The notes beneath the pieces were generated by a model. The model was not told where the DNA came from. It did no database searches and was given only the letters and a program-made list of their open reading frames with translations. The position numbers and the translations under genes were made by a program. From Candidatus Harpocratesius repetitus (lineage in GTDB: Archaea > Asgardarchaeota > Lokiarchaeia > Sigyniarchaeales > Promethearchaeaceae): a DNA stretch of 32,000 bases. Location of the stretch: positions 2,040,001 through 2,072,000 of the forward strand of contig JAIZWK010000001.1 of NCBI GenBank assembly GCA_021498095.1. Reading direction: 5' to 3'. Of this stretch, positions 8,026 to 29,649 are shown in pieces (positions within the stretch are counted from its first letter, which is position 1; each line of letters opens with the position of its first letter).

Positions 8026-8062
8026 CTTAATTTTCAAATAAAATTTTTATCAACTTTTATAA

Positions 8063-8575: not shown

Positions 8576-8674
8576 AAGACGTTTAAGAAAACCATATAAA
8601 AAAAGGTTAGGCTTGCGGAGTATAACAAGAAATCTATTTTTTCTTCTTGTAAATGTCTATTGTGAAAAAAATAA

Positions 8675-11600
8675 TTATAAAAAGAAGGAATCAAGATTTA
8701 TTTTTTGTCCATTAATAAAAACTTCTGTATATGTATAATTAGCAATATTTTTCTTTAGAAAGGCTTTTTCTTGATTAAGATCGATTGAATCTGTCTTATT
8801 ATACCAAATAATTAATATTCGTTTTTCAGTTTTTATTCCAAGAATAAACAAATATTCCACGCCATGATGCTCGTGCCATTGATAAGAATCAATTTGAATG
8901 GAGTATAAATAATTAAAAGTTTCAATCAAATCAACATTAACTGATTTTATGCCTGTATCTGATTGAATATTATATATACTTCGAAAAGGATTAGGAACTG
9001 GAAGATTACTTAACATATATGGATAGTTATGGATGAAATCATTAGGATTTAATAAATTTTGATTTGAAAATGAAATATTTTCGAAAGTGTCTTCAAATTG
9101 TTCGAGAATGTGATATTTTATTATAATTGATTTTTGTTTTGATTCTTCAGCAGTATCAATATGTCTTTTTGCGACAGAATTACTTTTAGAATCAACACTG
9201 TTAAGATCGATCAATTTTGGTTTTCCTGCGCGCCATTTAGGAGAAAAAACAAATTTAAGTAATCTGGGCTTTAAAACAGATTCAAAATAAGAACTTTTCT
9301 CAATTAAAATGAATTTTCGATGACTTTTAGAACTTTGATTCAATTCTAAAACAGCTTGTCCTGTTGTTCCTGAACCAGCAAAAAAATCTAATATCCATGA
9401 ATTTTCAGCCGATCCCAACTCAATAAATCGTTTAATTAAAGCGGTAGGTTTTGGATTAGAAAAAACAATTGTTCCAAACATTTGTTTGAGATCTGTAGTT
9501 GCTTTAGTTGTTGTTGGCAAATCTGTCCATAATGTATTTGTTACTCTACCACGGTTCATGGCTTCAAATTGATATCGTTTTCTTTGAGGTCCCGCTTCTC
9601 CGGATTTACCAAAAACAATTCTCCCTTCATTTAGCAATTTTTGAAAGGTATTATAATCATTCTTCCAACTGCAACCAGGATTTGGATAATATTCTTTACC
9701 AGTTTTTGGATTTTTAATGACATATTGTTGATTTGGCCGCCAACCTCCTACTTGAAAAGGGTCAGCTTTCCATGGTCCTTTTGGATCATTATCAGGATTA
9801 GTAAATCCCTCACCAGATTCTGGGAGACGAAATTCATTACGGTGACTGCGATAATAGGAAATATTTTTCGAAAAAATAATATTATGAGTATGGGCTTGGG
9901 AGATTAAAGCCGTATTGGTCATGGATTTCGTCGAATGCCACAATATATCCGCTATAAAATTGTGTTCTCCAAAAACTTGATTAGATAATAATCGAAAATA
10001 GTGGGTTTCATGATCATCTAAACTGGTAATTAGTAATCCTCGTTCAGAAAATAATGGATAAAGTTCAGTAAGGCTTGATTGCATTAAACTTAGCCAATAA
10101 CTATGAAGAAATCCATCATGATAAGAAAAGGTGGTATTTCCAGTATTATAAGGAGGATCAATATAACATAAGTCGATATTATTCCGATATTTATGAAGTA
10201 GTATTCGTAGTGCTTGATAATTATCAGATTGGAACAAAATTCCTGTTGTTTTTTCATCAAAATTAGAAATTGAAGCGATAATTTGATTACGAAATTTCTT
10301 AGGAAAAAATTTTGTATCGATCATCAAATTTGGAAAAGATCTTTTGAAGTTCTCACTGAATTTTAAAACATGTGAAATTTCATTTGTCTTGTGATCCTTT
10401 ATAGGAATAAAAGAAGAGAATTCCTTCAAGCTTAAAGATTGACCAAAAAGATGTTTATTTTTTATCATTTGAAGTAAATTGAAATCTAAATGTTCTTTCC
10501 ACCACTCTGTTTGTTTTTTATTTAAAAGAATTTCAGGGATAAAATGTGTAGGAATCAAATCAAGAGTCAAACAATAATCCGTTTTCAAAACCAATTTCGG
10601 TTTTTCCCAAATTTCCCTAAGGATTTCTTCAAAATTAGCCAAATGATTAATTAGTTGAAGAGAAAATTTCGTAATAAAATAACTACGAATGCGAATTTTC
10701 ATCATTCTTGCAGCAAGTTCATCAGTTAAATCGACAGCAGACTTATCAGCTAATAAATCTATTAAGTTATCATTAAACTTATCCATAAATTTAATAGGAG
10801 AATTATTTATGATTTCATCGCCAAATTCATTTGTGCGTTCATCTGTGCGTTCATTTGGGAGGTCATTGGTAAAATTATTTGAAAAAATATCCATATAAGA
10901 TGAAGATAAAGAACGAAAAGAAGGAAAAGAAGAAAAATGAACATCTTTTATGAATTTTTCAAGCTCTTGAATAAAAAAAGATCGTAAATCTCGATGGATT
11001 AGATATTCTTCCCCTTTGTATTGGCAGAGCTGTCTAAAATGCCATTCGATTGCAGAAATCATCTTCGCTTTTTTTTTTACTTTTTTTATTTTTGTTTTTT
11101 GATTTGATTGATTCGCCGACTTTTGCATTTTTTGTGCATATTCTTCAGAGAGTAATGGTTTGTAAGGATCTAAAAGATTTTGAGTAATTAATTCTTGATG
11201 ATTAGAAATAAAGTGTTGAATTTGCTCCAAATTATCTTGAAATATGTGAATAGACGAAACTCGAGTTAATTTTCTTTTCTTTTTTAATGAATGATATTCT
11301 TCAGAAGAGAGGGGTCTATATTCAAATTGAAATTTAAGATTTGAAGAATTTTTATCCCATGTAGAATCCTTTAATAGAAAATATGGTTGATGAATCCCTT
11401 TTTGTTTGCTTTCTTGCATTCTTTCTAAAGCTTGGTTACAAATAAATTCTACTTGGATATGGTGACTTGAAAATTGATACCGAATTTGGTGATCTCTGGG
11501 CTTAACATAGTATTGATCTTCAGTTGCCCACCATAGTCTGGTATCTTCTTGTGATTTTACGGCTAAATTGAGTTTTTGGGGAATAAATCTTCCATGATTA

Positions 11601-11923
11601 TAATAACGCTCAAAAAAATTAATCAGATCTCCAATAATCTGTTCAATAATCTCTTCTTCATCAATTTGATATTTTTGAAAGGAGAGTTTTCTATTCCAAT
11701 AATGAATATCTTCAGCCAAAGAGGGAATGATATCTTGAGAAATGATTTTTGATAGTTCTTTGGATCGAAAATTGAGAAATTGATGAATACCCCCTTTAAA
11801 ATTTGAAAGATCTCCTGTCAGAATCTGTTGTAATTGAATGATCAGGTTCTTTTCTCTTGCAATGAAATCCTCTTTGAATTTGTTTTTCAAGGGTATATTG
11901 CTTTTCTTCATTTTTTCTCCCAA
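8675..11923 (-). CDS. Large type III R-M Mod-like adenine DNA methyltransferase (beta order)
   Basis: Motif IV YIDPPYNTG precedes motif I ILDFFAGSGTTG; FQSDNYQAL, FSNPKP and an N-terminal FFERYY...WATEDQYYVK block typical of long Mod proteins. No Res gene is adjacent. Confidence 0.88.
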   Translation of the reverse strand: MGEKMKKSNIPLKNKFKEDFIAREKNLIIQLQQILTGDLSNFKGGIHQFLNFRSKELSKIISQDIIPSLAEDIHYWNRKLSFQKYQIDEEEIIEQIIGDLINFFERYYNHGRFIPQKLNLAVKSQEDTRLWWATEDQYYVKPRDHQIRYQFSSHHIQVEFICNQALERMQESKQKGIHQPYFLLKDSTWDKNSSNLKFQFEYRPLSSEEYHSLKKKRKLTRVSSIHIFQDNLEQIQHFISNHQELITQNLLDPYKPLLSEEYAQKMQKSANQSNQKTKIKKVKKKAKMISAIEWHFRQLCQYKGEEYLIHRDLRSFFIQELEKFIKDVHFSSFPSFRSLSSSYMDIFSNNFTNDLPNERTDERTNEFGDEIINNSPIKFMDKFNDNLIDLLADKSAVDLTDELAARMMKIRIRSYFITKFSLQLINHLANFEEILREIWEKPKLVLKTDYCLTLDLIPTHFIPEILLNKKQTEWWKEHLDFNLLQMIKNKHLFGQSLSLKEFSSFIPIKDHKTNEISHVLKFSENFKRSFPNLMIDTKFFPKKFRNQIIASISNFDEKTTGILFQSDNYQALRILLHKYRNNIDLCYIDPPYNTGNTTFSYHDGFLHSYWLSLMQSSLTELYPLFSERGLLITSLDDHETHYFRLLSNQVFGEHNFIADILWHSTKSMTNTALISQAHTHNIIFSKNISYYRSHRNEFRLPESGEGFTNPDNDPKGPWKADPFQVGGWRPNQQYVIKNPKTGKEYYPNPGCSWKNDYNTFQKLLNEGRIVFGKSGEAGPQRKRYQFEAMNRGRVTNTLWTDLPTTTKATTDLKQMFGTIVFSNPKPTALIKRFIELGSAENSWILDFFAGSGTTGQAVLELNQSSKSHRKFILIEKSSYFESVLKPRLLKFVFSPKWRAGKPKLIDLNSVDSKSNSVAKRHIDTAEESKQKSIIIKYHILEQFEDTFENISFSNQNLLNPNDFIHNYPYMLSNLPVPNPFRSIYNIQSDTGIKSVNVDLIETFNYLYSIQIDSYQWHEHHGVEYLFILGIKTEKRILIIWYNKTDSIDLNQEKAFLKKNIANYTYTEVFINGQKINLDSFFL
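10826..10857. repeat. 12-bp tandem repeat, about 2.7 copies, within mod (NERTDERTNE)
   Basis: ttcatttgtgcg ttcatctgtgcg ttcatttg. Confidence 0.8.
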
Positions 11924-11987
11924 TAATTAATAGTTCCATAGTCTGTTTATAATAATTTATGGAAAGTATATCAATAATTATTTATAT

Positions 11988-12278
11988 ATGAAATTCAAAG
12001 AGGTGTGGTTCAGTAAAGATTAAAAGAGAAAATTCCCTAATGATGTTGAGGTACTGTAAAATTGGGGTATCACGTTCTTCTCGAATGGTAATTCGCATGT
12101 TAGATTTGCTGATTTTACTGCAAATATTAGTTATATAATACCTTTGAGTCGTTCTCGCCAGTATTTCAATTTCAAGTCAATTTTTTGTCAGGGAAGTTAT
12201 AGTTATTCACCCAGTAAATTAAAGAGAATATTCTTTTATGATATATATAAGCAAGTTGTGGGATTTTTCCTCCTATAA
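11988..12278 (+). pseudogene. Possible decayed ORF (97 codons, two internal TAA)
   Basis: MKFKEVWFSKD*KRKFPNDVEVL*NWGITFFSNGNSHVRFADF...VGFFLL* in a single frame; no family recognised. Confidence 0.25.
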
Positions 12279-12452
12279 GTTAAGAAAAAAATTTATCGAC
12301 TAATTCTGTCTTATTTCAGTATAATTATAGATTTATACATATTTTTTTTAAATCTATAATAAAAAAGGTTCTTATGTGTGATAAATGATTACAATCTTTG
12401 ATAAAATCAGTAATATTTTTTTTATTAGAAGTCTGATTTTATTTATTATTAG

Positions 12453-12701
12453 ATGGAGAATTTTAAAAAAAAGTACATACAAGCGTTGGAATCAGAAAAT
12501 TCATATCAAGAATTAATTCAAATTGTACTAAACTTAAAAAAGAAAGGATTTAACCAAGATCAAGTTGTATCTCAATTTAATGATCTTCTTTCATATGTTA
12601 TTAAAAAAGGCAATGAAAAACAAGAAGAAATTCTACGAGAAGTAATGGATCTTATAGTTGGCTGGTGTAATCAAGATATGTGGCTTTTTAAGCCTGATTA
12701 A
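12453..12701 (+). CDS. Small helical hypothetical protein
   Basis: 82-aa amphipathic ORF ending EVMDLIVGWC; isolated on the + strand. Confidence 0.7.
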   Translation: MENFKKKYIQALESENSYQELIQIVLNLKKKGFNQDQVVSQFNDLLSYVIKKGNEKQEEILREVMDLIVGWCNQDMWLFKPD

Positions 12702-12851
12702 AAAAAGTAATAGAAATGCTTTACATGTGTGTTAATTGCTGGAATTTACTATATTGTGGGAATCAAAATACAAAATTGATATTTAAAAAAAGAAATCTAT
12801 CGCACAAAAAAAGAAAATAAATAAAAAATCGAACGAAATAGAAGAAAGTAA

Positions 12852-14534
12852 TTAATTTAAACGGTGATAACGATGACAATGATACACATAAAGATATAGA
12901 ATGAAGTACCCAAACACCACAGCAAGCCCTAGAAATTCAAAAGAACCTGCAATAGTAATTGAAGGTGAAGGTTGAGAATCATCATTTACGTCATCATTAT
13001 CTATGCTTGTGTCATCAGTCGTTGAATCGTCAGTAGCAGTATCGTCATTGGAAGTAGGTGTTAAGATACCTTTGCAATTAAAAATGAATGCTCCGCTATC
13101 CAATGTTTCATATCCACCAACAACTGCAAAATCTCGAATTCCATCGCCATTTTGATCAGCCATCAAAGTCATATCATAAATTTTAATTGCAAATGGATTT
13201 AGCCAGTATCCAGAACCAGAGACAGAATTTTTCCAATACCAAGTGAAGTTGTTACCGTAAAGAACACCAGTCATACCCGTTCCACCTACTGCATAATCTG
13301 GTATTCCATCTCCTGTTATATCGTCCAACTGCAAGAATCGAGTTATTTGGCCACCTGGAAGTGTTGTATTAGCAACTAGCATTCCGAAAGTTGTGGAATT
13401 AAGGCACACATCGAAAAATAAGATATCACCTTCCCAATTTCCAGTAATTACTTCAGGAAAGCCGTCTCCTGTAATATCATTAAAAACGACCAAATCCCTA
13501 AATGTACTGCCAATATTTGTCGCATTCCATATTAAGACTCCATTGCTTCCATTTAGAAGATATATTCCAGCGCGAGAAGTAGCAAGTACTTCAGGAATTC
13601 CATCATTAGTCATATCTGAAATCACAGTTATTCCTCCAACATCCGATTTAATATCGGTTTGCCAAATTAATGCATTTGCAGAAAAGTTAGTGGAAATTGC
13701 TGCAATAAAATTATCATAACCTGCAATTATATCGTCATGTTCTGTTCCATGGTTATCTATGTTCGATATCGGAATAATGCATGTATGGAATTTTCGATAA
13801 TCGAGATCTGCAGCGCCATCGCTAAATTGGAAAAAGGTGCTACCTTGATTTGGAGTTTGAAGATTCATTAATCCAACAATCTTTCCATTTGTACCTAATG
13901 CAGCTACTTCAAGTTCGTCATCATCATCAAAATTGCCTTTGCATAAACTTATTAGGGGTGTGTCGACAAAAGTTGATTTCCCATTGTCTTCAACAGTAGG
14001 TGCTGTACTATAAATGGGATTGGCAGCTTCTTGGCGAACTAATGTGCCAGTATCTGTGCCTTGAGTCGAATAGATTATCTTTGTGTTTTGATCTTGTGGA
14101 TCTACATAAGTAATAATTCCAGTTACTGCATCATCATTATCATTTTGTAATTTATTCAAACTGGTTGATTCATTTGTATAATATCCTTGTAATCCTCGCC
14201 AGCTAGCCATTCCAGTAGTTCCAACGATAATCATATCAGTAGTATTTGTATCACCTTCTCGTGTGTTTATCCCTGCAACAGATAATCCAGTAACATCTCC
14301 TAAACTCTGGGCAAATAGAATTTGACCAATACGTTTATAATCTTGAGCGGAATTGGGGGAATTACTTATTGTATTTTCAGAATTTTCGTAATTATAAGTA
14401 TTATCAGGAGTATAGAAAGAATTGATATTATTAAAAGGTATAAATGCTCCAAAAAACGAAATAAGTGTTACTCCAATTATGAAAAATCGAAGAGATCTAA
14501 AAAAGAATTTTTCAGCCATAAGAGTGATATGCAA
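12852..14534 (-). CDS. Membrane-anchored surface protein with FG-GAP/VCBS-like Ca-binding repeats
   Basis: N-terminal hydrophobic signal; repeats DMTNDGIPEV, DITGDGFPEV, DITGDGIPDY and DQNGDGIRDF; Asp/Thr-rich stalk; C-terminal TM with a short tail. Confidence 0.85.
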   Translation of the reverse strand: MHITLMAEKFFFRSLRFFIIGVTLISFFGAFIPFNNINSFYTPDNTYNYENSENTISNSPNSAQDYKRIGQILFAQSLGDVTGLSVAGINTREGDTNTTDMIIVGTTGMASWRGLQGYYTNESTSLNKLQNDNDDAVTGIITYVDPQDQNTKIIYSTQGTDTGTLVRQEAANPIYSTAPTVEDNGKSTFVDTPLISLCKGNFDDDDELEVAALGTNGKIVGLMNLQTPNQGSTFFQFSDGAADLDYRKFHTCIIPISNIDNHGTEHDDIIAGYDNFIAAISTNFSANALIWQTDIKSDVGGITVISDMTNDGIPEVLATSRAGIYLLNGSNGVLIWNATNIGSTFRDLVVFNDITGDGFPEVITGNWEGDILFFDVCLNSTTFGMLVANTTLPGGQITRFLQLDDITGDGIPDYAVGGTGMTGVLYGNNFTWYWKNSVSGSGYWLNPFAIKIYDMTLMADQNGDGIRDFAVVGGYETLDSGAFIFNCKGILTPTSNDDTATDDSTTDDTSIDNDDVNDDSQPSPSITIAGSFEFLGLAVVFGYFILYLYVYHCHRYHRLN

Positions 14535-14696
14535 AAAAGATCTAAAATACTTTTACTCTTTTAAGGAAAAATCATATATTTTTTTATTAATCCAGTAAAA
14601 ATCATTTGTATTCTTTAAAAACTGTCAGACTATTGACACAATAGACATTTCTTATATTTACTACAAAGAAATTTTGATTGGCGTGGTATTATATAT

Positions 14697-15104
14697 CTAA
14701 ATTAGATCTAATGCGATTTCCGAGAGAACAAGCATATGATTTACTACAGTCCATGAATCCCATATGTGATTTCCCCATGAAATTGGGGTTGCTGAGAGCC
14801 TTTGGATTTCTGTAGAAAAATTCCCTTTTTGGAAACATCCGATTAAAAAAACAACATCTTGAGATACATTCATTAATTTTCCAATTAGTTCTTGAATCTC
14901 ATTAAAAGATTTGTTCGGTCCTTTTTTAGTTAAAAGGAAGACTCTATCTGAAGAAAAATTCGAGGAAATCCAGTTATTGAATGAATCTTTATGTTGTGAA
15001 ATCAAAGATGATTTATGTTGAGCTGAGCTATCTATTAATGCATTTCCATAAGAATAATCACTGATTGCATCTATTCGTTCAAGAAATCTTTCATCATTGT
15101 AATT
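14697..15104 (-). pseudogene. In-frame chimeric remnant: yhbY internal fragment (15007-15104) fused to the nep1 3' half (14697-15006)
   Basis: 14697-15006 vs 21696-22005 has 14 mismatches in 310 bp; 15007-15103 vs 23131-23227 has about 20 mismatches in 97 bp. The junction is TTGTGAAATCAAA, present in both parent genes. No ATG start; GGFQKG is changed to GCFQKG. Confidence 0.9.
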
Positions 15105-15175
15105 CTAATGGCGGATTGATATTCAAAAAAATTTGTTCTCATTTTATTTTGAGTAAAAGTTGTAGAATTATTCTA

Positions 15176-15256
15176 TTAAATCGAATCTAATGCTAATTTT
15201 GTAAGGATTTACATCTAATTAAAGAGTATTTAATAAAAAAAGCAATGTTCTCCAAG
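15176..15256 (-). pseudogene. Heavily decayed nep1 3'-end fragment
   Basis: Frame reads LGEHCFFY*ILFN*M*ILTKLALDSI* vs Nep1 WGNHTLNSWTVVNHMLVLSEIALDLI*; 29/51 nt identity next to the stop. Confidence 0.6.
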
Positions 15257-15291
15257 AAAAAGTTTATACTACAAAAAGAGTAATTAATATT

Positions 15292-15996
15292 TCAAATTTC
15301 CTTCAAGTTTCCATTTTTTAAACGAAAGATTTTTTTTGCATATTTAAAAGTCTCTTTGTCATGAGTGACAGCAACAATTGTTAATCCAAAATCATTTAAT
15401 TTTTTAATAGATTTCCAGAAGATATTTTTAGTGTGATAATCAATAGAACCTGTAGGTTCATCTAAAAGGATTAACGGATTTTTGCAAATATATATGGATG
15501 CTAACGCTACGCATTTTTTTTCGCCCCCACTTAATTTTATTGTTCTTTTGTCTAGTAAATGATCAATTCTTAATTCTTTTGCTGTCTCTTTGATTTTTTG
15601 CTTTATTGTTTTTACTGGAATTTCATATAGATTCGCATTGAACTCTAAATACTCTTTTACTTTAAAACTATCAGGAAGATATATATTTTGAAATACATAT
15701 CCTATTTTTTTTCTTAGTTCAAATTGTTTAAATGACCCTGAATTAAGTATTTCATTGTTAAATAGAAAAATTTTTCCACTTTTAGGAAATTCTAATCCGC
15801 CTAATAAATATAGAAGAGTCGTTTTTCCAGAACCAGATGGTCCAAAAATAATATTAAAATCTCCTTGATTCACAATCCAATTAACGTTATTTAATATTTG
15901 CTTTCTTTTTGTACCATTTTCATAGTAAAAACTGACATCCTTTAATTGTATTGGTGGAGGTGTTTTATTATTTACATCTATATTCAATGATTTCAT
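15292..15996 (-). CDS. ABC transporter ATP-binding protein (LolD/MacB-like)
   Basis: GPSGSGKTT, LSGGEK, LLDEPTG, VTHD. Confidence 0.93.
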   Translation of the reverse strand: MKSLNIDVNNKTPPPIQLKDVSFYYENGTKRKQILNNVNWIVNQGDFNIIFGPSGSGKTTLLYLLGGLEFPKSGKIFLFNNEILNSGSFKQFELRKKIGYVFQNIYLPDSFKVKEYLEFNANLYEIPVKTIKQKIKETAKELRIDHLLDKRTIKLSGGEKKCVALASIYICKNPLILLDEPTGSIDYHTKNIFWKSIKKLNDFGLTIVAVTHDKETFKYAKKIFRLKNGNLKEI

Positions 15997-15997
15997 T

Positions 15998-16747
15998 TTA
16001 AATCTCCTGAATTTTACCGTTTTTCAAAATAAATAACTTATGATTACGGGTAATTTCTTCATTATGTGTAGTGATTAAAACGCATGCATTATTTGATTCT
16101 CTATACTTATCCAAAATATTAATAATGTTTATCTTATTTTCATCGTCTAATTGAGAAGTAGGTTCATCGCAGAGAATTAATTTAGGAAGTTTTATTAAAA
16201 CACATGCTAAATTAAGTCTCTGTATTTCACCTCCCGATAATTTCCGAACAGGTGTGTTTAAATCTAAGGAGAGATTAAAAAATTTCAGATATTTAGCATA
16301 ATCCATTTTTTCCAAATTTAATATACCTTTCTTTTTTCCTAAATGTTGATAGAGTGATAAATTTTCTTTGATACTAAGATCTAAACATAACGTTTTCGCT
16401 GGAAATTGATTTACATATCCAATTCTACTCCAATAATCTGCCCTTATAGAATATTTCATTATATATAACTTATGAATTGAATAGTGCTTAAAGTAAATTT
16501 CTCCAGCTGAAACAGGAGAAACACCTAAAATCATTCGAATAAATGTGCTTTTTCCTGATCCAGAAGCTCCCATTAGGAAATTTAGCTGATTGAATGTAAA
16601 TTTTTGATTTACACCTGATAAAATAGGGATTTTTGTATGAGGATCAGATGGATGAGGAAAAATTTTTGTTAAATCCTTTATTACCAAGATGTTATCGTTA
16701 TTTTTATCCTCATCCATTGTAATTGTACTTAATTTTGCTTCTGACAC
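15998..16747 (-). CDS. ABC transporter ATP-binding protein (GTG start)
   Basis: GASGSGKST, LSGGEIQR, LCDEPTS, TTHN. Confidence 0.92.
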   Translation of the reverse strand: MSEAKLSTITMDEDKNNDNILVIKDLTKIFPHPSDPHTKIPILSGVNQKFTFNQLNFLMGASGSGKSTFIRMILGVSPVSAGEIYFKHYSIHKLYIMKYSIRADYWSRIGYVNQFPAKTLCLDLSIKENLSLYQHLGKKKGILNLEKMDYAKYLKFFNLSLDLNTPVRKLSGGEIQRLNLACVLIKLPKLILCDEPTSQLDDENKINIINILDKYRESNNACVLITTHNEEITRNHKLFILKNGKIQEI

Positions 16748-16753
16748 TGTGAA

Positions 16754-19471
16754 CTACTCCGGATATCTAAATAATTCTTTAATCTTTAACTGACTAAATT
16801 TTCGAAATTCTAAATATTGATATAAGGCAATAATGCTCAAGAAGAAAACTGACAAATAAAGTATGTTTTTAACTAAAAAATTAAAAAATGTTAAATTTAT
16901 TCCAGATAATAAAAGAGATGCTAGATTTGCAAAAAGACTTGCTAACATTAAACTCAAAATATATGAAATAATGAAAATTATTCCTTCTATAATCAAACAA
17001 TTTCTTAAAATCTTGCGATGGTTGGTTACCAATCCAAATTTCGCCAGAATAATTGATTTTCGTTTAGATATTGTTGAAACATTAATAAAACCGAAATACA
17101 ATGCTAAAATTCCAAATATTAAAGAAATTTGTAATGTTTGAAATAATAAGCTTGATTGCAATTGTTCAATTCCTATAAATCCTGACATATCAAGAAAATT
17201 TACGCTAAAACTCGAAAATTTATTTGAGATTTCAAGTCCAATTTCATTAACCTGGTTATATTTAACATTTAAAAGAAAAGTTTCTTGATAATTCACATTA
17301 GAAGCATTTAACAGAATCGTTAGTATGTCTTTTGGAATGATACCAAATTCTATATTTTTTGATTGTATCTCTATATTATTCATAGGATATGAAGTTAAAA
17401 CCGGCCAACTTTTAACAAATGCATTTACATCACAAATAAAATATTCATTTTTTCCTTCAGATGAGTTATAATATGGAATAATAAATTGATCTTCAAGATT
17501 ATAACCGATTTCTTTAAATTGATAACTAAGTAATATGGAATTATTTTTCGAAAAAAATAATGAATTCCCTTTTTCTTTAGTTTCGAGTAAATCCAATACT
17601 TTCTTTTCTCCATAGAAATCAATCCAATTTTGATAGTCTATTCCCATAAGGTTGTACTCAACTTTATATATCGAATCATTTACGTTAAAATCCGTATGTA
17701 TTGATATATAGGAAATATAATTCACTAATCCAAGTTTTTCTCGATTAGTTTCTAAGTAACCTCTAAATTCACTTGAATTTTTTGAATCACACGATACAGA
17801 AATCGGAGATCCAAGTTCCCAAATTGTGTTAGTCCTAAATATATTAACAAATACAGTGGATCCAACATTGATTATTATAAAAGAAAATAGTATCAAAGAA
17901 ATAATGAATATTTTTTTATAACTGTATTTATTCCAAAAAGAGAATAATAGGTATGTTTTACTGAGTTTTTTCCCTTTGTTTATCCAGATTTTTTGTAAAA
18001 TTAATTGGAAAACTGATGTAAATAATCTAAGGAACAAAGAAATAACTATGCAACAAGTAATTAATAACCCAATTACTGCCATTAAGGATAAGATTATTAT
18101 TCCATTATCTTGTAAATAAATAAATATAAACAATCCGGTAATTACTAGGAAAATTGAAATTTTTATCGGTCTTTGCATTGAAGAAAAACCAGATTTTAAT
18201 AAATCAAAATCATCGTCATTTTTCAATGATCTATTTATTATAATTTCAGAAATTACCCTCCCCATCAAAAAAATGAAGGTTACGATTGAAATCGATATGA
18301 TATAATATAATATATCAAATTGATAAGGTGCGACAAACAAAAGGTACTGTATTTTCATAAAAACGAATAATATTATTAAAGATATTGTAGCACTACTTAT
18401 TATAATCAGTAAAAATTCTAGGAAAAACAGAAAATTTCGCTCGAACTTGTCTTGACCTCTTAGAAGTTCATTTTGTTCAAAATCTTTATCTACGTTATAA
18501 TACTGTAAAATTAATAGAATCAGATATAGAAATGGAAAAATAAAAATGAAAATTTGAATTATTCTTAAAATTAAAAACGTAATGTTGATAAACGATTCCG
18601 AAGAAAGTATTTTTGCTTCTAAATATGGATTCTCGGCATGAAAATCAATATTTGTGTATGAATTTTCGAAAAATAGCTTAATTTCATTAAAATAAGAAAA
18701 TAGATGTTCCTTTGCATTTTTAGACCAAATTATCCCATTATATTTCTCTAAATTAAATACTTCTTGATAACCAGTAATTTTATATTTAAAACTGGGATTT
18801 ACTATCTTTACTGGGGATAAATCAGTTCCATAAGATTCTAATCGAGTAATAACAACAGAATTCAAATCAGTATATCTTAAAATTGTTTCATTGAAAATGA
18901 AATTAGCAAAAGAATTAGAATAATTTAAAAGATTTTCTGAACATATCTGAGTTGTATTTGTAATATCAAAACTGTAATCATCTATTTTAATATTAAAAGA
19001 AGGATCTTTTGCTGAGAATTTGGTATTATTTTGAGAAATATTCAAGAATAAGTATTGTGTATTATTATGATAATTGTTTATCTTATTGAATATTCCATCA
19101 TCAATGCCAATAAACATAGAATTTGAATTATTAAGTTCGATAAAATTATATAAAAATATTACGCTGTTGGATTCTTCTTGGTTGAAATCAAAGTGATTAT
19201 TGCAAATTTTGTCAATTTTATAATCAAAATTTTGTATAATTTCGCTTGTAAAAGATTCACCTGAAAAAAAGGAAATGTATTGATAACTTTCCTGTTGTGA
19301 ATCAATTTCAAATATAGGTTTGAAAATACTGGCTAATCTATTAGGTGATACAAAAGAATTTAAAGATAAAATAATCGTAAATATAAAGATTAGAATACTT
19401 AAAGAAAATACAATGTTACTTATTTTCTTTTTTTTGGATTTAAGGCGAATATAAATTTGTTGCATTGACAT
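16754..19471 (-). CDS. Large ABC permease, FtsX/MacB-like double-module topology
   Basis: 905 aa arranged as TM, large extracellular domain, TM cluster, second extracellular domain, three C-terminal TMs; tightly coupled to two ATPases. Confidence 0.75.
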   Translation of the reverse strand: MSMQQIYIRLKSKKKKISNIVFSLSILIFIFTIILSLNSFVSPNRLASIFKPIFEIDSQQESYQYISFFSGESFTSEIIQNFDYKIDKICNNHFDFNQEESNSVIFLYNFIELNNSNSMFIGIDDGIFNKINNYHNNTQYLFLNISQNNTKFSAKDPSFNIKIDDYSFDITNTTQICSENLLNYSNSFANFIFNETILRYTDLNSVVITRLESYGTDLSPVKIVNPSFKYKITGYQEVFNLEKYNGIIWSKNAKEHLFSYFNEIKLFFENSYTNIDFHAENPYLEAKILSSESFINITFLILRIIQIFIFIFPFLYLILLILQYYNVDKDFEQNELLRGQDKFERNFLFFLEFLLIIISSATISLIILFVFMKIQYLLFVAPYQFDILYYIISISIVTFIFLMGRVISEIIINRSLKNDDDFDLLKSGFSSMQRPIKISIFLVITGLFIFIYLQDNGIIILSLMAVIGLLITCCIVISLFLRLFTSVFQLILQKIWINKGKKLSKTYLLFSFWNKYSYKKIFIISLILFSFIIINVGSTVFVNIFRTNTIWELGSPISVSCDSKNSSEFRGYLETNREKLGLVNYISYISIHTDFNVNDSIYKVEYNLMGIDYQNWIDFYGEKKVLDLLETKEKGNSLFFSKNNSILLSYQFKEIGYNLEDQFIIPYYNSSEGKNEYFICDVNAFVKSWPVLTSYPMNNIEIQSKNIEFGIIPKDILTILLNASNVNYQETFLLNVKYNQVNEIGLEISNKFSSFSVNFLDMSGFIGIEQLQSSLLFQTLQISLIFGILALYFGFINVSTISKRKSIILAKFGLVTNHRKILRNCLIIEGIIFIISYILSLMLASLFANLASLLLSGINLTFFNFLVKNILYLSVFFLSIIALYQYLEFRKFSQLKIKELFRYPE

Positions 19472-19473
19472 TT

Positions 19474-20241
19474 TTAATCAAATAACCGATTTTTTTTTGT
19501 AAATTGAGTGAAAATTATGATCCAACCAATAACACTTCCAGCAATAAGTATCGGAATAAGTAGCTTAGTATAATTTTCATTTTGGTGATTTGAGGTATTA
19601 TCATAACTTTGAATTTGACGAATCCCAAGATATGCTTCTTCGAAATTCCATGAATTGAGATATTTTGAATTAAATTCAGTATTAATTATTTTTATTCTAA
19701 TAGACTCAGTTAAGTTTGTCCTGCAATTCACGATAACTTCTTCAACAAGTTTATTTTGATGAGCATGATATTCGTAGTACTTCAGATGTATCGGGTCGTA
19801 TTTAATGATTATAGAATTATTTGCAAATTGCTGTTGTCTATAAGAACTAAACTCAATATAATCATTAAAATTTGAAAGATTCCAATATAAGTAATTTGAT
19901 ATATTCACTTTTCCTAAGGATATATAACTTATTTCACCATATCCATTAGTTAATATTATTTCCATTATGTCGGAAATCGATTGAGAAGTTGTTGATACTA
20001 ATTGAATTCTAGGAAAGATATTATTATAATCATTGTTTAAAATTAAGCCGTTTGAGTAAAATGTGACGTTTAAATTTTGAAATAAACTTAAAGTAGAACC
20101 TTGAAGTTCATTTGAGGCATCACCTGAAATATCTACTTCATAGACATTTTGTTCTGAATCTTGTGCAACACTTATTGCTGTGAAATTTAGAAAAAATATT
20201 AATAGAAATAAGATAAAAAACGTGAACTTTTTTTCCATCAT
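19474..20241 (-). CDS. Secreted protein with C-terminal membrane anchor, unknown function
   Basis: Signal peptide ending SVA-QD; C-terminal LLIPILIAGSVIGWIIIF followed by TKKNR. Confidence 0.75.
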   Translation of the reverse strand: MMEKKFTFFILFLLIFFLNFTAISVAQDSEQNVYEVDISGDASNELQGSTLSLFQNLNVTFYSNGLILNNDYNNIFPRIQLVSTTSQSISDIMEIILTNGYGEISYISLGKVNISNYLYWNLSNFNDYIEFSSYRQQQFANNSIIIKYDPIHLKYYEYHAHQNKLVEEVIVNCRTNLTESIRIKIINTEFNSKYLNSWNFEEAYLGIRQIQSYDNTSNHQNENYTKLLIPILIAGSVIGWIIIFTQFTKKNRLFD

Positions 20242-20265
20242 GATGAATTCCTATTTATCAATAAA

Positions 20266-20823
20266 TTAATACAACACTATTCTATATCGAATTGTTAAGG
20301 CACCACTATAACCATCGAAATAATATTCATGTGTATACCAGATACCGTAGTTATTACTACCACCAAATGAAACATACCTCCAATAGTAACTATACCAAGT
20401 TCTTAATTTTAAATACACCCGAAGTTCATAACCAGTTTCTGATAAATCAGGAGCATAGCAATAATCAGATTTGTAGTTACTATTTTCACCAAAGATTATT
20501 GAACCAACTCCATTAGTTGTTCCACCTCTAAAAGATGCAATTTTATTATAGTCTAATTTATCAATTCCATCATCGTAATTAGAATCAGAAGTGAACACCT
20601 TTCCATAACTTCCAAAAATTCTTTCAAATTGAACTGCTACATCCAAATAGTAGTGTTTATTTTCGAGCTGGTCAGATACTTTCACCCAATCAATTTCAAA
20701 CGCGACTTTTTTCATATCTCTTTCGATGACAGCATTAGCGCTATTCATTATAAATATTGGAAATAATGACGAAATTAAGCAAAGAACTATTAATTTTCTA
20801 ATCTTTTTGTTCATTTTATTCAC
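20266..20823 (-). CDS. Secreted Tyr/Gly-rich protein, paralog of 20875-21429
   Basis: Signal peptide ending SANA; shares IDWxKVxDQ, RIxGSYG and CYAPDLSExGYEL with its neighbour. Confidence 0.8.
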   Translation of the reverse strand: MNKMNKKIRKLIVLCLISSLFPIFIMNSANAVIERDMKKVAFEIDWVKVSDQLENKHYYLDVAVQFERIFGSYGKVFTSDSNYDDGIDKLDYNKIASFRGGTTNGVGSIIFGENSNYKSDYCYAPDLSETGYELRVYLKLRTWYSYYWRYVSFGGSNNYGIWYTHEYYFDGYSGALTIRYRIVLY

Positions 20824-20874
20824 TTTTTTTTATCAAATAAAAAAATAATAATCTATAAAAATGCTTCTTTAATC

Positions 20875-21429
20875 TTATTCAGTTATAACTTTATATCTTA
20901 TTTGTATTGATCCAGAAAAATTTGGAAATGAATATGTATATCTATACCAAGTATTATATTCAATTACACCTCCGAAGTAATGATAATCAATATCAGTTTT
21001 TATTGGATAAATTGACTCAATACGACCGTGTACCTTTAATTCATACCCTGCTTCAGATAAATCAGGAGCATAGCAAACATCAGAATAATAATCTGAATAA
21101 CTACCAAATATTATTGTATTAATTGGTGAAGATGCGCCATTGAATGAACAAATATAATCATAGTCTAAAAAAAATAAATGTGCTGAATAATCTATATCAT
21201 TTGAATATTTTTCACCATAGGAACCATAAATTCGAGCAAATGATACTGAAAAAGACATTTTGTAATTATATCCATAGAATTGATCTGTAACCTTAATCCA
21301 ATCAATAACAAATCTCGTTTTTTTTAAGTTGGTTTGATCAATCGCAGATGTTCTATCAATGCTAATAGCAGGGATTATTGTTAGAGAAAAAATCGTGATT
21401 AAAATTAACCATTTATTAATTCTTCTCAT
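20875..21429 (-). CDS. Secreted Tyr/Gly-rich protein, paralog of 20266-20823
   Basis: Signal peptide ending RTSA; same conserved blocks; no TM anchor. Confidence 0.8.
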   Translation of the reverse strand: MRRINKWLILITIFSLTIIPAISIDRTSAIDQTNLKKTRFVIDWIKVTDQFYGYNYKMSFSVSFARIYGSYGEKYSNDIDYSAHLFFLDYDYICSFNGASSPINTIIFGSYSDYYSDVCYAPDLSEAGYELKVHGRIESIYPIKTDIDYHYFGGVIEYNTWYRYTYSFPNFSGSIQIRYKVITE

Positions 21430-21498
21430 GAAACAAAATTTTGTGATGATATCTTTAAATTTTATAGTACATTTTTTTTTAAGAGTATTATTTATGAG

Positions 21499-21660
21499 TT
21501 AAATTAAATCGAATACAAATTCTGTTAGGACTAGAACCCGATTAAAGACCGTCCACGCATTTAAAGGATATCTTCCAAAAGCAATATGCATTGATGGGAT
21601 ATTTTGAATCTCAGCTGAAAAATCTCCCTTTTAATATCCACTAATCAAAATAGCAATATT
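21499..21660 (-). pseudogene. Divergent nep1 3'-end fragment (54 codons, one internal TAA)
   Basis: NIAILISGY*KGDFSAEIQNIPSMHIAFGRYPLNAWTVFNRVLVLTEFVFDLI* has 25/53 aa identical to the Nep1 C-terminus, gap-free, with the same stop position. Confidence 0.88.
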
Positions 21661-21695
21661 GTCGGTTGAATTTTTATTTATCCTTTTTCTATTCT

Positions 21696-22379
21696 CTAAA
21701 TTAGATCTAATGCGATTTCCGAGAGTACAAGCATATGGTTTACTACAGTCCATGAATTCAACGTGTGATTTCCCCATGAAATTGGGGTTGCTGAGAGCCT
21801 TTGGATTTCTGTAGAAAAATTCCCTTTTTGGAAACCTCCGATTAAAAAAACCACATCTTGAGATATTTTCACAAATTTTCCAATTAGTTCTTGAATCTCA
21901 TTAAAAGATTTGCTCGGTCCTTTTTCAGTTAAAAGGAAGACTCTATCTGAAGAAAAATTCGAGGAAATCCAGTTATTGAATGAATCTTTATGTTGTGAAA
22001 TCAAATAAGGTTTCTTAGGAGGAATATGTCCTAATTCTAGCAGCTGAGCAATCAAACCTTTGAATCGCAGATAGTCTCTTGGACAACGCATAGCAGAATC
22101 TATTAAGAAAAATCCAGAAGGACACTGAAAATGGAGTTGTAAATTTCCATGTATATTTAAAGGAGATCCTAAACAATCAAGAAGAAAGTGATGTAAAATA
22201 TCTGGTCGACCTCTTTTTTGTGCATCAGGTAACTGATTCATGGTAGAATGATGCAGAGCGACATCTAATAATAGAGCTGCTTTTCCCAATTTTTGATGAT
22301 TTCGATAGAAGCTAGGTGTTTTTCTTAAATTTTTTGGAACTAATTCGATAGCAGTGTCTACAAGGATAAAATGAATCAT
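21696..22379 (-). CDS. nep1: Nep1/Emg1 rRNA small-subunit pseudouridine N1-methyltransferase (SPOUT)
   Basis: KRGRPDILHHFLL, SPLN, RCPRDYLRFKGLIAQLL, LIGGFQKGNF. Confidence 0.93.
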   Translation of the reverse strand: MIHFILVDTAIELVPKNLRKTPSFYRNHQKLGKAALLLDVALHHSTMNQLPDAQKRGRPDILHHFLLDCLGSPLNIHGNLQLHFQCPSGFFLIDSAMRCPRDYLRFKGLIAQLLELGHIPPKKPYLISQHKDSFNNWISSNFSSDRVFLLTEKGPSKSFNEIQELIGKFVKISQDVVFLIGGFQKGNFSTEIQRLSATPISWGNHTLNSWTVVNHMLVLSEIALDLI

Positions 22380-22397
22380 TTCAGGATTTCACTCTTG

Positions 22398-22441
22398 GAA
22401 TTTAATTGGTAATAGGATTTAATTGGTAATAGAATTTAATT
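22398..22441. repeat. 17-bp tandem repeat, about 2.6 copies, across the rnp4 stop and rnp4-nep1 spacer
   Basis: gaatttaattggtaata ggatttaattggtaata gaatttaatt. Confidence 0.8.
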
Positions 22442-22868
22442 TATTTCCAGATTTTTTAGAGTTTTTTGAATTTTGACTTTTTATATCTTTTCCATTGATC
22501 CAGCGAAGATTGCGACAAGCGGGGCCCTTAAATAAATAACGGGTTGTATGACCGCAATCTAAACAAGTTACAGTTAAGTAACTGGCATAATTCTTAATAT
22601 GCCCTATCCTATATCGAACATTGTAACCAATTCGTAACCAATGTTTACAAGAATGACACACTTTATGATGATATTCAAGAGGGAATCTTATTTTAGTTGC
22701 CATAGCTAGTTTTCTGGCAAGTTGAATATACCGATGAGCTAACATAGAATTTTCAGGGAAAATTTCATCTGCCATTTTGACCAATTCATGAATTCGTTCA
22801 AGAGCGGCTTGTTTCATAAGTTTCTGCCGTTTCATGCGCTTAGAATAAAAGCGTTTAGATTTTCCCAT
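22419..22868 (-). CDS. rnp4: Ribonuclease P protein component 4 (Rpp21/Rpr2)
   Basis: ALERIHEL, RYIQLARKLAM, zinc ribbon CHSC...VTCLDCGHTTRY. Confidence 0.92.
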   Translation of the reverse strand: MGKSKRFYSKRMKRQKLMKQAALERIHELVKMADEIFPENSMLAHRYIQLARKLAMATKIRFPLEYHHKVCHSCKHWLRIGYNVRYRIGHIKNYASYLTVTCLDCGHTTRYLFKGPACRNLRWINGKDIKSQNSKNSKKSGNKLNSITN

Positions 22869-22889
22869 TATTAATTATCTCCAAAAAGG

Positions 22890-23642
22890 TTAAGATTTTC
22901 TATTATTTGAATGGGATCCTTTTTTTGAACGTGATTGAGGTCGTTTGGAACGATTGTCACCAAATTTTCGCATATTCTTTCGAAGTGGATTTTTATTATT
23001 AGGTCTATTTTGATTTTGCCCTTTTCGAGAGGATTTTTGAGAGAATTTTGGAGAAGATTTTGGAGAAGATTTTTTGTAAGACTTTTTTATTACATGTTGA
23101 ACCTTTTCTGGCTTAATTTGTGAAATCAAAGGTGATTTAGGTTGCGCTGAAGTATCTATTGATGCATTTCCATAAATTTCATCACTGGCTGCATCTATTT
23201 GCGCAAGAAGTTCTTCATCATCATAATCAATAAATTCAGGTTCTTCCGGTTCATCATTATCATTGTTTTCATCAGATTTATATGCTTTTTCTTCATTTTT
23301 TGGTTCTTTATCATGATTTGAATCTAGTTTTTCTTGTTTTACATGTTGTTTTCGCATTATTCGGTATTTCTTAGGTATTTGCACACCATGGACTGCCCGT
23401 TTAGATATAACAGCGGTAAATCCTCGAACATCTAAAACATAAATTCCCAGTTGTTGAATAAGATATTCTAAAAAGTAATCCACTCCGTATGTGTGGGCAA
23501 TATCCTTTAGAATTTTGATTTTTAACAACTTATTCGTTTTAAAAAGCTCTGTGATATGAATAAGCATGTTTGGGGTAATTCCATTTTTTCCGATAATAAC
23601 GTGTGCCCGATTTTGTAAGGTGGTTTGAAATTCTTCGTTCAT
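22890..23642 (-). CDS. yhbY: YhbY/CRM-domain RNA-binding protein with a long low-complexity C-terminal extension
   Basis: VIIGKNGIT and LLKIKIL CRM motifs in the first ~90 aa, adjacent to rnp4; then acidic and K/S/R/N-rich tails. Confidence 0.82.
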   Translation of the reverse strand: MNEEFQTTLQNRAHVIIGKNGITPNMLIHITELFKTNKLLKIKILKDIAHTYGVDYFLEYLIQQLGIYVLDVRGFTAVISKRAVHGVQIPKKYRIMRKQHVKQEKLDSNHDKEPKNEEKAYKSDENNDNDEPEEPEFIDYDDEELLAQIDAASDEIYGNASIDTSAQPKSPLISQIKPEKVQHVIKKSYKKSSPKSSPKFSQKSSRKGQNQNRPNNKNPLRKNMRKFGDNRSKRPQSRSKKGSHSNNRKS

Positions 23643-23712: not shown

Positions 23713-25305
23713 GGCTATTTTTAATAACGAAGGATCAATTCACTGACATATCGGTTTGATTTTTTTTGCCCCAATTTTCGTTTAATTGAAATAGTCGTTT
23801 AATTCCTGAATTATTCCACTCATTAAAGAGAATTTTTGGGCTAAATAGGTGCGGAACAATGGTAATTCCTAAGATTTCTGGGTTATTTCGATAAATAATA
23901 TATGCCCGAAGTCGCTGTTCTAAAACCTCAGGTGTTTTAGGACCTGTTAAATGCACACGAGTCTCAATCACACTATTTATATTCTCCGCTAGATTATTTG
24001 ATATAGACTTGTGCCAAAATAAGTCTTGTGTTTCCCTAATAGCAGCTGCAACTGCGGGAAGCACATCTTTTGCCAGTTTGAGAGTTTTATGAAAAAGGTC
24101 AATTTTTGCATATCCCCGTTTTCCTCTGTCAAAAACTTTAAAAAGTCCTTTCCGCCTCCGCTTCATTTTTGGTTTTGGATTTTTTCTTTGTTTTCCTTGC
24201 CCGTTTTTCACTCCTTTTGGTCTTCCCCGTTTTTTTGATATTGACACACTCAAATCATCTTCATTCACTAGGTAAAAGTATTCTTTCTTCCCCCATTTTT
24301 TAAAAAAATCGGTTTTAACACCTATTTTGGTAGTTATTCGCTTTTTCTTTTCATAGTCTATATGCCAAATAACGGCTTTATCATAGGGTTTTTTATGTTT
24401 ATGAATTACTAAGGTAATATTACGCATCAAATTCTTGCTCATTGTTTGTGTAGCACCCCATGCATCGGCAGTAACTATTTTTATCGGCAATTTTATATTT
24501 CGATTCGCTTCCTCAAAAACTTCACGGATGTCTTTTTCGTTCCTCGTTTTTGAAACCTTTATTCCGAGGATTTTATGAGTAGTATAACCCGTGAACATGA
24601 TAATATAAAACGGTACACCGTTTATCCGAATGAAAGTTTCATCTGCTGCAACCGCAGTATCATTCGTTAATTCTACAACCAGATTTTTCAATCCTTGCAG
24701 ATCTGAAATTGTTTTCTCAATCTTAGAACGCAAATAGCAGATAAGGGCATCGGAAACCCCATATTTTTCAGCTATTGCACTCTGACTGATTTTTCCTTTC
24801 ATGATTTCTTTTGTCATCTTTCCGAGCATGCAGTCAAGCACTTCTTTGACACCTCCAGATGTAGTCAAGGCAAATTGTCGGGCAGTATTGTGCGTTTTAT
24901 TGAATAAGCATGCAGGATTTTTACACTGATAATATTGAACTCTTCTACCTTTCCGTTTATGAGTGCCACATGGTCCAACGACAGCGGAACGACATTCTGG
25001 GCACAAAACAGGTATTATTTCCAGTAATTCCTCCCTTCTATCTTCGATATTGATGTACAATGGCTCGAATAATGGAGGATATTCTTTTTTAGGGCGTCCT
25101 ACCATAGGATAACACATGATTAATGTGATTTAAACATTTCCAAAATATCGGTTTACGAACTGACTTGAAATAGATGCTTAAGGTAGTGTACGCTTTGCTC
25201 ATAAATTTCAACTAAGTTGCCAAAAATAAATATTTGAAAGATAATTTGGAAATAATTTAAAAAATATGGCTTCTCTTAATTGATCCTTTATCCTTAAAAA
25301 TAGTC
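23713..25305 (-). mobile_element. Complete 1593-bp insertion sequence, IS6-like
   Basis: TIRs GGCTATTTTTAATAACGAAGGATCAATT and GACTATTTTTAAGGATAAAGGATCAATT (23/28 match); 8-bp TSD GGAAATTG at 23705-23712 and 25306-25313. Confidence 0.93.
23735..25117 (-). CDS. DDE transposase with N-terminal Zn ribbon and HTH
   Basis: CPEC...YYQCKNPAC ribbon; AADETFI, VTADAWG and SNNLAENIN catalytic segments resemble IS6/IS1-type DDE enzymes. Confidence 0.88.
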   Translation of the reverse strand: MCYPMVGRPKKEYPPLFEPLYINIEDRREELLEIIPVLCPECRSAVVGPCGTHKRKGRRVQYYQCKNPACLFNKTHNTARQFALTTSGGVKEVLDCMLGKMTKEIMKGKISQSAIAEKYGVSDALICYLRSKIEKTISDLQGLKNLVVELTNDTAVAADETFIRINGVPFYIIMFTGYTTHKILGIKVSKTRNEKDIREVFEEANRNIKLPIKIVTADAWGATQTMSKNLMRNITLVIHKHKKPYDKAVIWHIDYEKKKRITTKIGVKTDFFKKWGKKEYFYLVNEDDLSVSISKKRGRPKGVKNGQGKQRKNPKPKMKRRRKGLFKVFDRGKRGYAKIDLFHKTLKLAKDVLPAVAAAIRETQDLFWHKSISNNLAENINSVIETRVHLTGPKTPEVLEQRLRAYIIYRNNPEILGITIVPHLFSPKILFNEWNNSGIKRLFQLNENWGKKNQTDMSVN

Positions 25306-27120: not shown

Positions 27121-27376
27121 AACTATTCACACTTTTCACATTAATCACACTATTCAAATTAATACTTTTCCTTCTATTCAAAGTGAATAGTTAAGCTAAA
27201 TATCTATTTAGAAGTGGAAAAAAGACAAAATAAATACTATTGTTAATTAAACATTCATGCTTCATTTGCTAATTCAGTGTAAAGAATTCAGAAATAATGT
27301 AAGTAATTTTTGCGAAAAGTTTTCAATATTTCTATATCTTTTAGACAATTCAAATGAATTCATTTTGAATTTTATA

Positions 27377-27892: not shown

Positions 27893-27896
27893 TATC

Positions 27897-28238: not shown

Positions 28239-28416
28239 AGATTTCCACTATACAAAAGATAAATTTAATATTTAAATAATTGGATAGCTTTGTATATCAG
28301 ATAAAAAATAATAAATCATTTTATTTTAAAATAGTAAAGATTAGTGTTTTAAAGAAGAAAAATGATAATATAACTTTAAATTAAAAGAATTAAGATTTTT
28401 CGATGAAGAGATGAAG

Positions 28417-29637: not shown

Positions 29638-29649
29638 TTAAAGGCATTT

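Follow-up and report, generated by a model that had tools for sequence, protein, structure and literature searches.

An accessory operon without a recombinase gene, nested among remnants of the nep1 gene end in Candidatus Harpocratesius repetitus

The genome of Candidatus Harpocratesius repetitus contains, within a stretch of 32,000 nucleotides (nt) (genome positions 2040001-2072000), a nep1 gene that is followed by three further copies of its own 3' end, with a six-gene operon lying among them. How could an intact gene for a SPOUT rRNA methyltransferase come to be trailed by such a series of tails, and what do the tails record about the arrival of the operon? The whole stretch is referred to below as the window, and coordinates are positions in it unless genome coordinates are stated; all the genes of the region are on the minus strand. 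A preliminary description of the window had viewed nep1 as a repeatedly used attachment or recombination site. Part of that view stands, in that foreign DNA does lie behind nep1, but the stacking of cassettes at an attachment (att) core does not, and the locus is best filed as the gain of an island at the 3' end of a gene, nested, recombinase-free and one of a genome-wide class.

Four nep1 ends around a single insert

The intact nep1 is a full-length match to the EMG1/NEP1 family, covering profile positions 1-193 of 197 in PF03587. The four nep1 3' ends lie where the preliminary description had placed them, in the same orientation and each with a stop codon, and those that follow the intact gene are called tails B, C and A in the order in which they are met downstream. 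The features that make up the structure are as follows.

22890-23642, minus strand: yhbY (Pfam CRS1_YhbY), the gene two positions upstream of nep1
22419-22868, minus strand: rpr2 (Pfam Rpr2)
21696-22379, minus strand: intact nep1, 227 amino acids (aa) (Pfam EMG1/NEP1, PF03587, E 1.9e-35), last gene of the yhbY-rpr2-nep1 operon
about 23227 to 21695, minus strand: source of the duplication in the yhbY-rpr2-nep1 stretch, from the middle of yhbY through the nep1 stop
21695-22005, minus strand: outer direct repeat of 311 nt, proximal copy, formed by the 3' part of the intact gene, with its border 1 nt beyond the stop codon
21664-21694, minus strand: spacer of about 32 nt (32-33 nt) from the nep1 stop to tail B, different from the ancestral downstream flank
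21499-21663, minus strand: tail B, last 55 codons of a putatively foreign nep1 with one TAA, aligned to the nep1 end without gaps
15292-21429, minus strand: cargo of six genes, from Pfam matches and translations
15176-15259, minus strand: tail C, decayed end of a nep1 (27 codons and the terminal stop, interrupted by three further stops), recognized by its match to tail B
14994-15103, minus strand: yhbY fragment of 110 nt, in frame with tail A, corresponding to 23118-23227, 81-82% nt identity to the resident yhbY
14994-15006, minus strand: 13-nt junction TTTGATTTCACAA, which occurs in both yhbY and nep1 and encodes LISQ
14697-15006, minus strand: tail A, distal copy of the outer repeat (Nep1 residues 126-227, 95.5% nt identity), a decaying orphan
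14576-14696, minus strand: flank that ancestrally followed nep1 and today lies behind tail A (88/124 nt match to the relative L038)

Tail C is separated from the yhbY fragment by about 70 nt. A six-gene secreted-protein/ABC module does lie among the tails, as had been described, but it is the single cargo of the locus, so the several cassettes of different ages that had been proposed are not there.

The state of the locus before the gain can be read from a close relative. A protein search led to a 33-kb Logan contig labelled Candidatus Harpocratesius sp. (L038), whose Nep1 is 89% identical at the aa level and whose syntenic blocks are 87-90% identical to the window at the nt level; in the nearest relatives among reference genomes Nep1 is only about 50% identical. 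The genes of L038 run in the order TIR-Nudix, SBF, ArsR, yhbY, rpr2, nep1 and a small gene, followed by TBP on the opposite strand, and its nep1 locus has neither cargo nor tails, nor the insertion sequence (IS) that lies upstream of yhbY in the window. The 120 nt behind the nep1 stop of L038 align to the flank after tail A (88/124), not to the sequence after the intact nep1, and tail A therefore sits on the ancestral flank. The comparison shows that in the ancestral state nep1 was directly joined to the flank now behind tail A. Since L038 is free of the island and matches this flank, about 6.6 kb (15107-21694) were inserted after the two lineages split. Two expectations of the preliminary description, namely an unoccupied site in some relative and a displaced native 3' end at the far boundary of the island, are thus realized in L038 and in tail A, respectively.

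The outer repeat does not end with nep1. The yhbY fragment and the nep1 end at 14697-15103 together duplicate parts of 21695-23227, and these alignments show that a second copy of the operon end once spanned 1.5 kb or more, beginning in the middle of yhbY and finishing with the nep1 stop. The distal copy later lost about 1.1 kb between its two 13-nt copies of TTTGATTTCACAA, a deletion that left a yhbY::nep1 chimera. Tail A had been described as a free-standing, near-identical tail; the near identity is real, but the tail is fused at TTTGATTTCACAA to the yhbY fragment and does not stand free. As a separate observation, the chimera (14697-15101) retains a 135-codon open frame to the nep1 stop, and a possible TTG start at its junction would yield a predicted 102-aa C-terminal half of Nep1; the sequence offers no support for expression of the chimera.

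The tails differ widely in their divergence. Tail A is 95.5% identical to nep1 over about 310 nt (tblastn E 8e-57, 88% aa identity). Its 14 differences fall in 13 codons and 10 of them are non-synonymous, including a change of Gly to Cys in the conserved GGFQKG, while no stop has arisen; the substitution pattern is that of an orphan apparently in free drift. In a three-way comparison of the 310-nt repeat with L038, there were 22 sites at which the two copies share a letter that the relative lacks, seven at which only tail A departs and three at which only nep1 does. The outer copies are therefore sisters, either younger than the split from L038 or homogenized since. Tail B, on the other hand, shares only 25/54 aa with the resident Nep1 (E 1e-10, no frameshift) and 28/53 aa with the Nep1 of a relative of the same genus; its nt identity to nep1 is 99/165 (60%), with a longest exact run of 7 nt. 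Its differences from nep1 are distributed over codon positions 1, 2 and 3 as 21/9/36, and this bias, together with the single stop and the lack of a frameshift, argues that it evolved as the working end of a nep1 in a third lineage. Tail B is, as far as this pattern tells, the end of a nep1 from another, unsampled species, which would have diverged under selection and arrived with the cargo. No Nep1 closer to tail B turned up in the public protein sets searched: a word-based search of 5.8 billion proteins using the 43 residues after its stop returned nothing, and in an exhaustive HMMER search of 1.84 billion representatives for its donor the best true Nep1 was only 54% identical.

Tail C is weak at the protein level but is, judged at the nt level, a real nep1 end. 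It matches tail B at 50/84 nt in an ungapped alignment with the stop codons in register, and nep1 at 42/84. The last 84 nt of tail B were slid over both strands of the 4.36-Mb genome, and the scores were 84 for tail B itself, 51 for nep1, 50 for tail C and 49 for tail A; the best unrelated site scored 46, and none of 2000 shuffles reached the score of tail C. At informative sites tail C goes with tail B 17 times and with nep1 nine times (p 0.08). The tails begin at differing Nep1 residues (126 in A, about 172 in B and about 200 in C), and pairwise comparison of the flanks behind the four stops revealed no significant likeness, save that of the tail A flank to the flank of the relative.

The yhbY-rpr2-nep1 order is kept in all nine loci of relatives examined (9/9). 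Extra nep1 tails were not found in 40 relatives searched with the Nep1 protein, nor in the nine nep1 loci examined closely. When 151 genomes of the order were searched with the Pfam EMG1 profile, no tail-like extra matches came up, but the profile is too insensitive for short tails, as it barely detects tail A (E 2e-4) and misses tail B. The preliminary description had suggested tBLASTn with the Nep1 C-terminus and a comparison of the gene content behind nep1; neither the 40 relatives nor one sister genus, within which the genes downstream of nep1 are conserved, support its reading.

A proposed gain anchored on the operon, and its rivals

A young native outer pair of nep1 ends surrounds an old and partly foreign inner pair, from which it follows that tail B, the cargo and tail C arrived together. 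We hold, with moderate confidence, that one accessory operon entered behind nep1 by recombination anchored on yhbY-rpr2-nep1, without a dedicated integrase. The order of target segment, insert, target segment and old flank fits a single crossover with a circle bearing the segment (Campbell-type pop-in): a contiguous chromosomal segment is directly duplicated on both sides of the insert, the distal copy lies on the ancestral flank, and the site is unoccupied in L038. An equivalent duplicative insertion would yield the same layout. In such a course of events, the insert would have been a block of tail B, cargo and tail C bearing older scars from a previous host, with tail B as the working end of the nep1 of that host and tail C as a still older orphan. 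A single crossover with circular DNA carrying the operon segment would then have left the segment duplicated around the insert of about 6.6 kb, the duplicate would have been trimmed by the 1.1-kb deletion at the 13-nt microhomology to give the chimera, and recombination between the 311-nt copies could excise the island again in circular form, about 7 kb long. As tail B would be the end of the donor's nep1, the cargo would already have been behind nep1 in the donor, and therefore at least two such events, in different lineages, would be recorded here. The gene gain is in this case dated and anatomically clear, with an empty site, a duplicated target, a later microhomology deletion and a co-transferred piece of the donor nep1.

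The absence of an integrase, noted already in the preliminary description, holds for the island and its neighbourhood, where Pfam searches detected no recombinase domain in the six cargo genes or the neighbouring genes, and homologous recombination is the more likely route. The whole genome encodes one tyrosine recombinase (PF00589, 2287030-2287563) and has 12 small resolvase-domain matches; action of a recombinase in trans is possible. A transposase with terminal inverted repeats and a short target duplication, as expected of an insertion mediated by an IS or transposon, was not found at the borders of the island, the sole nearby transposase-like gene (23735-25117) lying outside the structure, and no motif was shared by the junctions of eight repeat-bracketed insertions.

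Several points weigh against entry by anchored recombination. A circular form or the crossover itself was not observed, the short-read contigs being collapsed at the repeat. The two halves of the chimera have diverged unequally, with 14/310 differences in the nep1 half and 21/111 in the yhbY half (Fisher p 1e-5), and in a three-way comparison the yhbY fragment agrees with the relative at six sites and with the resident yhbY at four, so that it is not clearly the sister of the resident gene. One clean duplication does not account for such unequal halves, and an extra step is needed, such as gene conversion in the nep1 half or a donor whose sequence differed from that of the recipient to one side of the crossover. 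Furthermore, tail B, with 60% nt identity and no exact run longer than 7 nt, is too divergent for homologous recombination with nep1. The first landing of divergent donor DNA exactly behind nep1 is consequently not explained, which hints at targeting beyond plain homology. Finally, in most of the similar cases found across the genome (see below) the repeat border lies a few nt from the stop codon, which plain homologous recombination does not predict unless selection is assumed.

Some of these points would be accommodated by site-specific accretion, in which elements with a replacement nep1 end enter serially at an att core, much as SCC elements use rlmH and ICESt1-type elements with their integrase-less derivatives use fda, the integrase acting in trans or having been lost and older elements having been mostly deleted. 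Four co-oriented ends that all stop at the same position, a native tail that lies on the old flank at the far end, and repeats elsewhere in the genome that also finish at stop codons are all in its favour. Tail B resembles a selected tail, as an element-borne replacement end would, and its excessive divergence favours sequence-independent or protein-guided targeting. We nevertheless regard accretion as unlikely, because serial att integration predicts that the farthest tail should be the oldest, that several cargoes should be present and that the tails should start at a common core, none of which is seen. The order of decay is reversed, the farthest tail A being the freshest (95%, no stop) and the inner tails the most decayed; the three tails have no common start; and there is a single cargo, so that the other "elements" would measure 32 and 70 nt. 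In addition, the outer repeat, instead of being an att core, belongs to a duplicated stretch of 1.5 kb or more that extends into yhbY, no integrase is found in the island or the window region, the one tyrosine recombinase of the genome stands against some ten unrelated scarred genes, and extra tails were not found in the 40 relatives searched.

A different explanation concerns the assembly itself, namely that the island is a free circle of about 7 kb carrying the chimera in some or all cells beside an empty chromosome, and that the assembly joined the two forms or that the duplication is artefactual. The preliminary description had named a misassembly of the repeat as grounds for abandoning its claim. 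Short-read contigs of the probable source sample carry both cargo junctions without a mismatch, one of them covering 14977-21724, but these contigs taken alone fit the circle as well. The 311-bp repeat is one collapsed contig with a depth of 25.4, about twice the 11.7-17.9 of its neighbours; with two ways in and two ways out, this node of the contig graph agrees equally with the integrated form and with an empty chromosome plus a 7-kb circle, and the island contig is slightly shallower (11.7) than the flanks (14.3-17.9). However, the lower depth of the island agrees with its lower GC, the repeat copies retain 14 distinct differences in the assembly, and the chimera cannot be the sole copy of nep1 and rpr2, so that both copies must be present in the cell regardless. 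The paper naming the most likely organism reported the genome as a Nanopore (Canu) assembly polished with short reads (PMC8813620), and Nanopore reads of a few kb span a 311-nt repeat, which makes a false join across it unlikely. Taken together, we consider a free circle or an artefact highly improbable. The locus is not described in the papers naming the organism that the genome most likely represents. In all four runs compared (4/4), one contig joins 15087 to 15330 through 36 other letters, at a depth of 28.5 in the source run, above that of the organism. The 36-mer does not occur in this genome, and the contig probably belongs to another organism with a short chance similarity.

Least credible of all is a purely local history, in which tandem duplications of the operon end and their decay in this lineage left the tails around a native operon: local duplications and repeats are indeed common in this genome, but the codon-position pattern and genus-level distance of tail B point to a gene that worked in another lineage, and the operon is missing at this site in L038 and rare among relatives.

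Scars at other gene ends, and known systems

Entry by anchored recombination at nep1 can be set against the rest of the genome. When the genome was compared with itself, 33 low-copy pairs of direct repeats emerged, with repeats of 45-1200 nt and copies separated by 0.3-20 kb. In nine of them the proximal copy ends at most 20 nt from the stop of an intact gene reaching past the repeat, with the orphan copy downstream of it. Gene-end repeat pairs outside the window, in genome coordinates, are listed here.

63606/66880
342390/344019
378603/381272
510694/513331
785266/795486
2260749/2265222
2460829/2467437
2565756/2572392
3491644/3499666

In these pairs, repeats of 55-300 nt copy the 3' end of an intact gene and enclose 1.5-10 kb of cargo that encodes no recombinase. 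Genes of a PUA protein, an rdhA-like protein, a lacZ-like protein, an SNF2 helicase and an ABC transporter are among the scarred targets, along with nep1; an actin gene is a variant, in which the repeat covers two convergent gene ends. The mirrored test at 5' ends gave one spurious case, and three or four repeats spanning a start codon also exist. The bracketed cargoes are diverse, including AAA14/DUF4143, DUF285, radical SAM and beta-helix proteins as well as unknowns, and no recombinase gene was found in any of them genome-wide.

These scars bear on whether nep1 is special. Eleven loci were tested, and nep1 alone turned out to carry multiple orphan tails, save for a region of a paralogue family (open reading frame ending at genome position 3491762) with three downstream matches; to that extent nep1 does stand out as a site, but the same scar occurs behind unrelated genes. 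For this reason the parallel that had been drawn with SCCmec at rlmH, on the ground that both targets are SPOUT methyltransferases, looks coincidental, the PUA, lacZ-like, SNF2, ABC and actin genes bearing the same scar. The roughly nine other scarred genes suggest a general gain of cassettes without recombinases in this genome and, with nep1, that accessory operons can enter behind housekeeping genes without an element-encoded recombinase. Whether they form a class of recombinase-free mobile cassettes, each of which travels with a copy of the 3' end of a host gene, enters by host recombination and exits as a circle, is a tentative idea that we put forward as possible rather than probable. If it were true, one cassette would have moved serially through two or more host lineages and left the three nep1 tails as its trace, and the abruptness of the repeat borders at stop codons would reflect a still-hidden rule for the first joining to a gene. 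If cassettes can exit and re-enter via their repeats, this would be a simple form of mobility overlooked by searches for mobile elements that are based on integrases and transposases.

Among the closest known systems is Campbell-type integration by a single crossover, known from archaeal and bacterial genetics as "pop-in/pop-out". A segment directly duplicated around the insert, a distal copy on the old flank and a possible excision as a circle are common to both. At nep1 the process would be a natural one, carried out by host recombination on a circle, the duplicate has been trimmed by a microhomology deletion, and the insert carries older scars from another host. Homology-facilitated illegitimate recombination of naturally transformable bacteria uses one homologous anchor and a microhomology join, and replaces DNA. 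It shares with the locus foreign DNA by a conserved gene and a microhomology join (13 nt in the present case), whereas the anchor is duplicated here rather than used for replacement; the process is not known from Asgard archaea.

Islands at gene ends with recombinases of their own are well known. SCCmec and composite SCC arrays sit at the 3' end of rlmH (orfX) in staphylococci and depend on their own serine recombinases (Ccr) and a short core repeat. They have in common with the present locus an island behind an intact SPOUT rRNA methyltransferase gene and copies of the gene end that mark the borders; unlike them, the nep1 island shows no recombinase, a 311-nt repeat derived from at least 1.5 kb, one cargo, and a scar found also behind unrelated genes. 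Elements of the ICESt1/ICESt3 type and integrase-less cis-mobilizable elements (CIMEs) accrete at the 3' end of fda in Streptococcus thermophilus, and tycheposon arrays with partial tRNA remnants occur in Prochlorococcus; both kinds of arrays rest on tyrosine-recombinase elements with defined att cores. Integrase-less cargo bounded by remnants of the target gene end and gathering at one site is the shared trait, but neither an att core nor a tyrosine-recombinase element was found at nep1.

The cargo and the neighbouring genes

The six cargo genes, all on the minus strand, are these.

20875-21429, minus strand: secreted protein 1 (first cargo gene), signal peptide read from the translation
20266-20823, minus strand: secreted protein 2, paralogue of the first, signal peptide read from the translation
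19474-20241, minus strand: membrane-anchored surface protein, from the translation
16754-19471, minus strand: 905-aa polytopic membrane protein, membrane spans read from the translation
15998-16747, minus strand: ABC ATPase
15292-15996, minus strand: ABC ATPase

The two ATPases match ABC_tran at E 1e-27 and 6e-23, and the two secreted proteins (20266-21429) are paralogues with 40% identity. No Pfam match was found, even at a lax threshold, for the 905-, 255-, 185- and 184-aa proteins; the 905-aa protein may be FtsX/MacB-like, a label that reflects its topology as judged by eye alone. The G+C content (GC) of the cargo is 24-27%, versus 30-37% in the flanks.

A homologous operon with the same gene order, having a single copy of the secreted-protein gene, is found in another closed genome of the family (L036, 8445-14047), 1.1 Mb from the nep1 of that genome. 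Homologues of the first cargo gene occur in three of the 151 genomes of the order, and a search with its product against a big protein set matched only itself. The 905-aa protein was met in Joint Genome Institute (JGI) metagenome contigs as one contig of 1.2 kb, too short for its context to be read. In two independent hydrothermal-vent metagenomes, from Pescadero and Guaymas, the cargo is present at about 91-95% identity, with nep1, yhbY and the FG-GAP gene almost uncovered; the contigs are short and of low depth, and such coverage gaps serve as a hint only that the operon occurs in other genomic backgrounds. One low-depth contig of an independent vent metagenome tracks the nep1 end and the 32-nt spacer and departs at 21664, a weak hint; its 30-nt loose end was found neither in this genome (at up to 5 mismatches) nor in the GTDB species genomes.

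Two further features flank the structure.

23735-25117, minus strand: multi-copy IS with a DDE transposase-like gene, upstream of yhbY
12852-14534, minus strand: FG-GAP gene, after 120 nt of flank

The DDE transposase-like gene encodes 460 aa and sits between ArsR and yhbY; tblastn gives some 59 matches to it in the genome, with identities reaching 93%. Neither a genome of the same genus nor L038 has it at this position, and the IS was therefore inserted in the present lineage.

On the other side of the island, the block 5597-14576, which includes a small SnoaL-like gene, TBP and thioredoxin, is inverted relative to nep1 when compared with L038 and the genome of the same genus. A perfect inverted match of 13 nt (5446-5458 and 14578-14590) lies near both breakpoints. 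The inverted block also holds the FG-GAP gene and the gene of a DNA methylase of 1082 aa, neither of which was seen at the corresponding place in L038.

Farther upstream of the operon, 27095-29680 holds the genes of a 171-aa protein, an RHH antitoxin-like protein and an AAA_14/DUF4143 ATPase between the SBF and TIR-Nudix genes, which are only 16 nt apart in L038. The insertion changed the final codons of SBF, and no repeat flanks it. Elsewhere the genome encodes seven related pairs of RHH and 171-aa proteins. Just upstream of the TIR-Nudix gene, at 29650-29720, there are about three tandem copies of a 23-nt unit similar to CAATGAACAAAAGTTTT.

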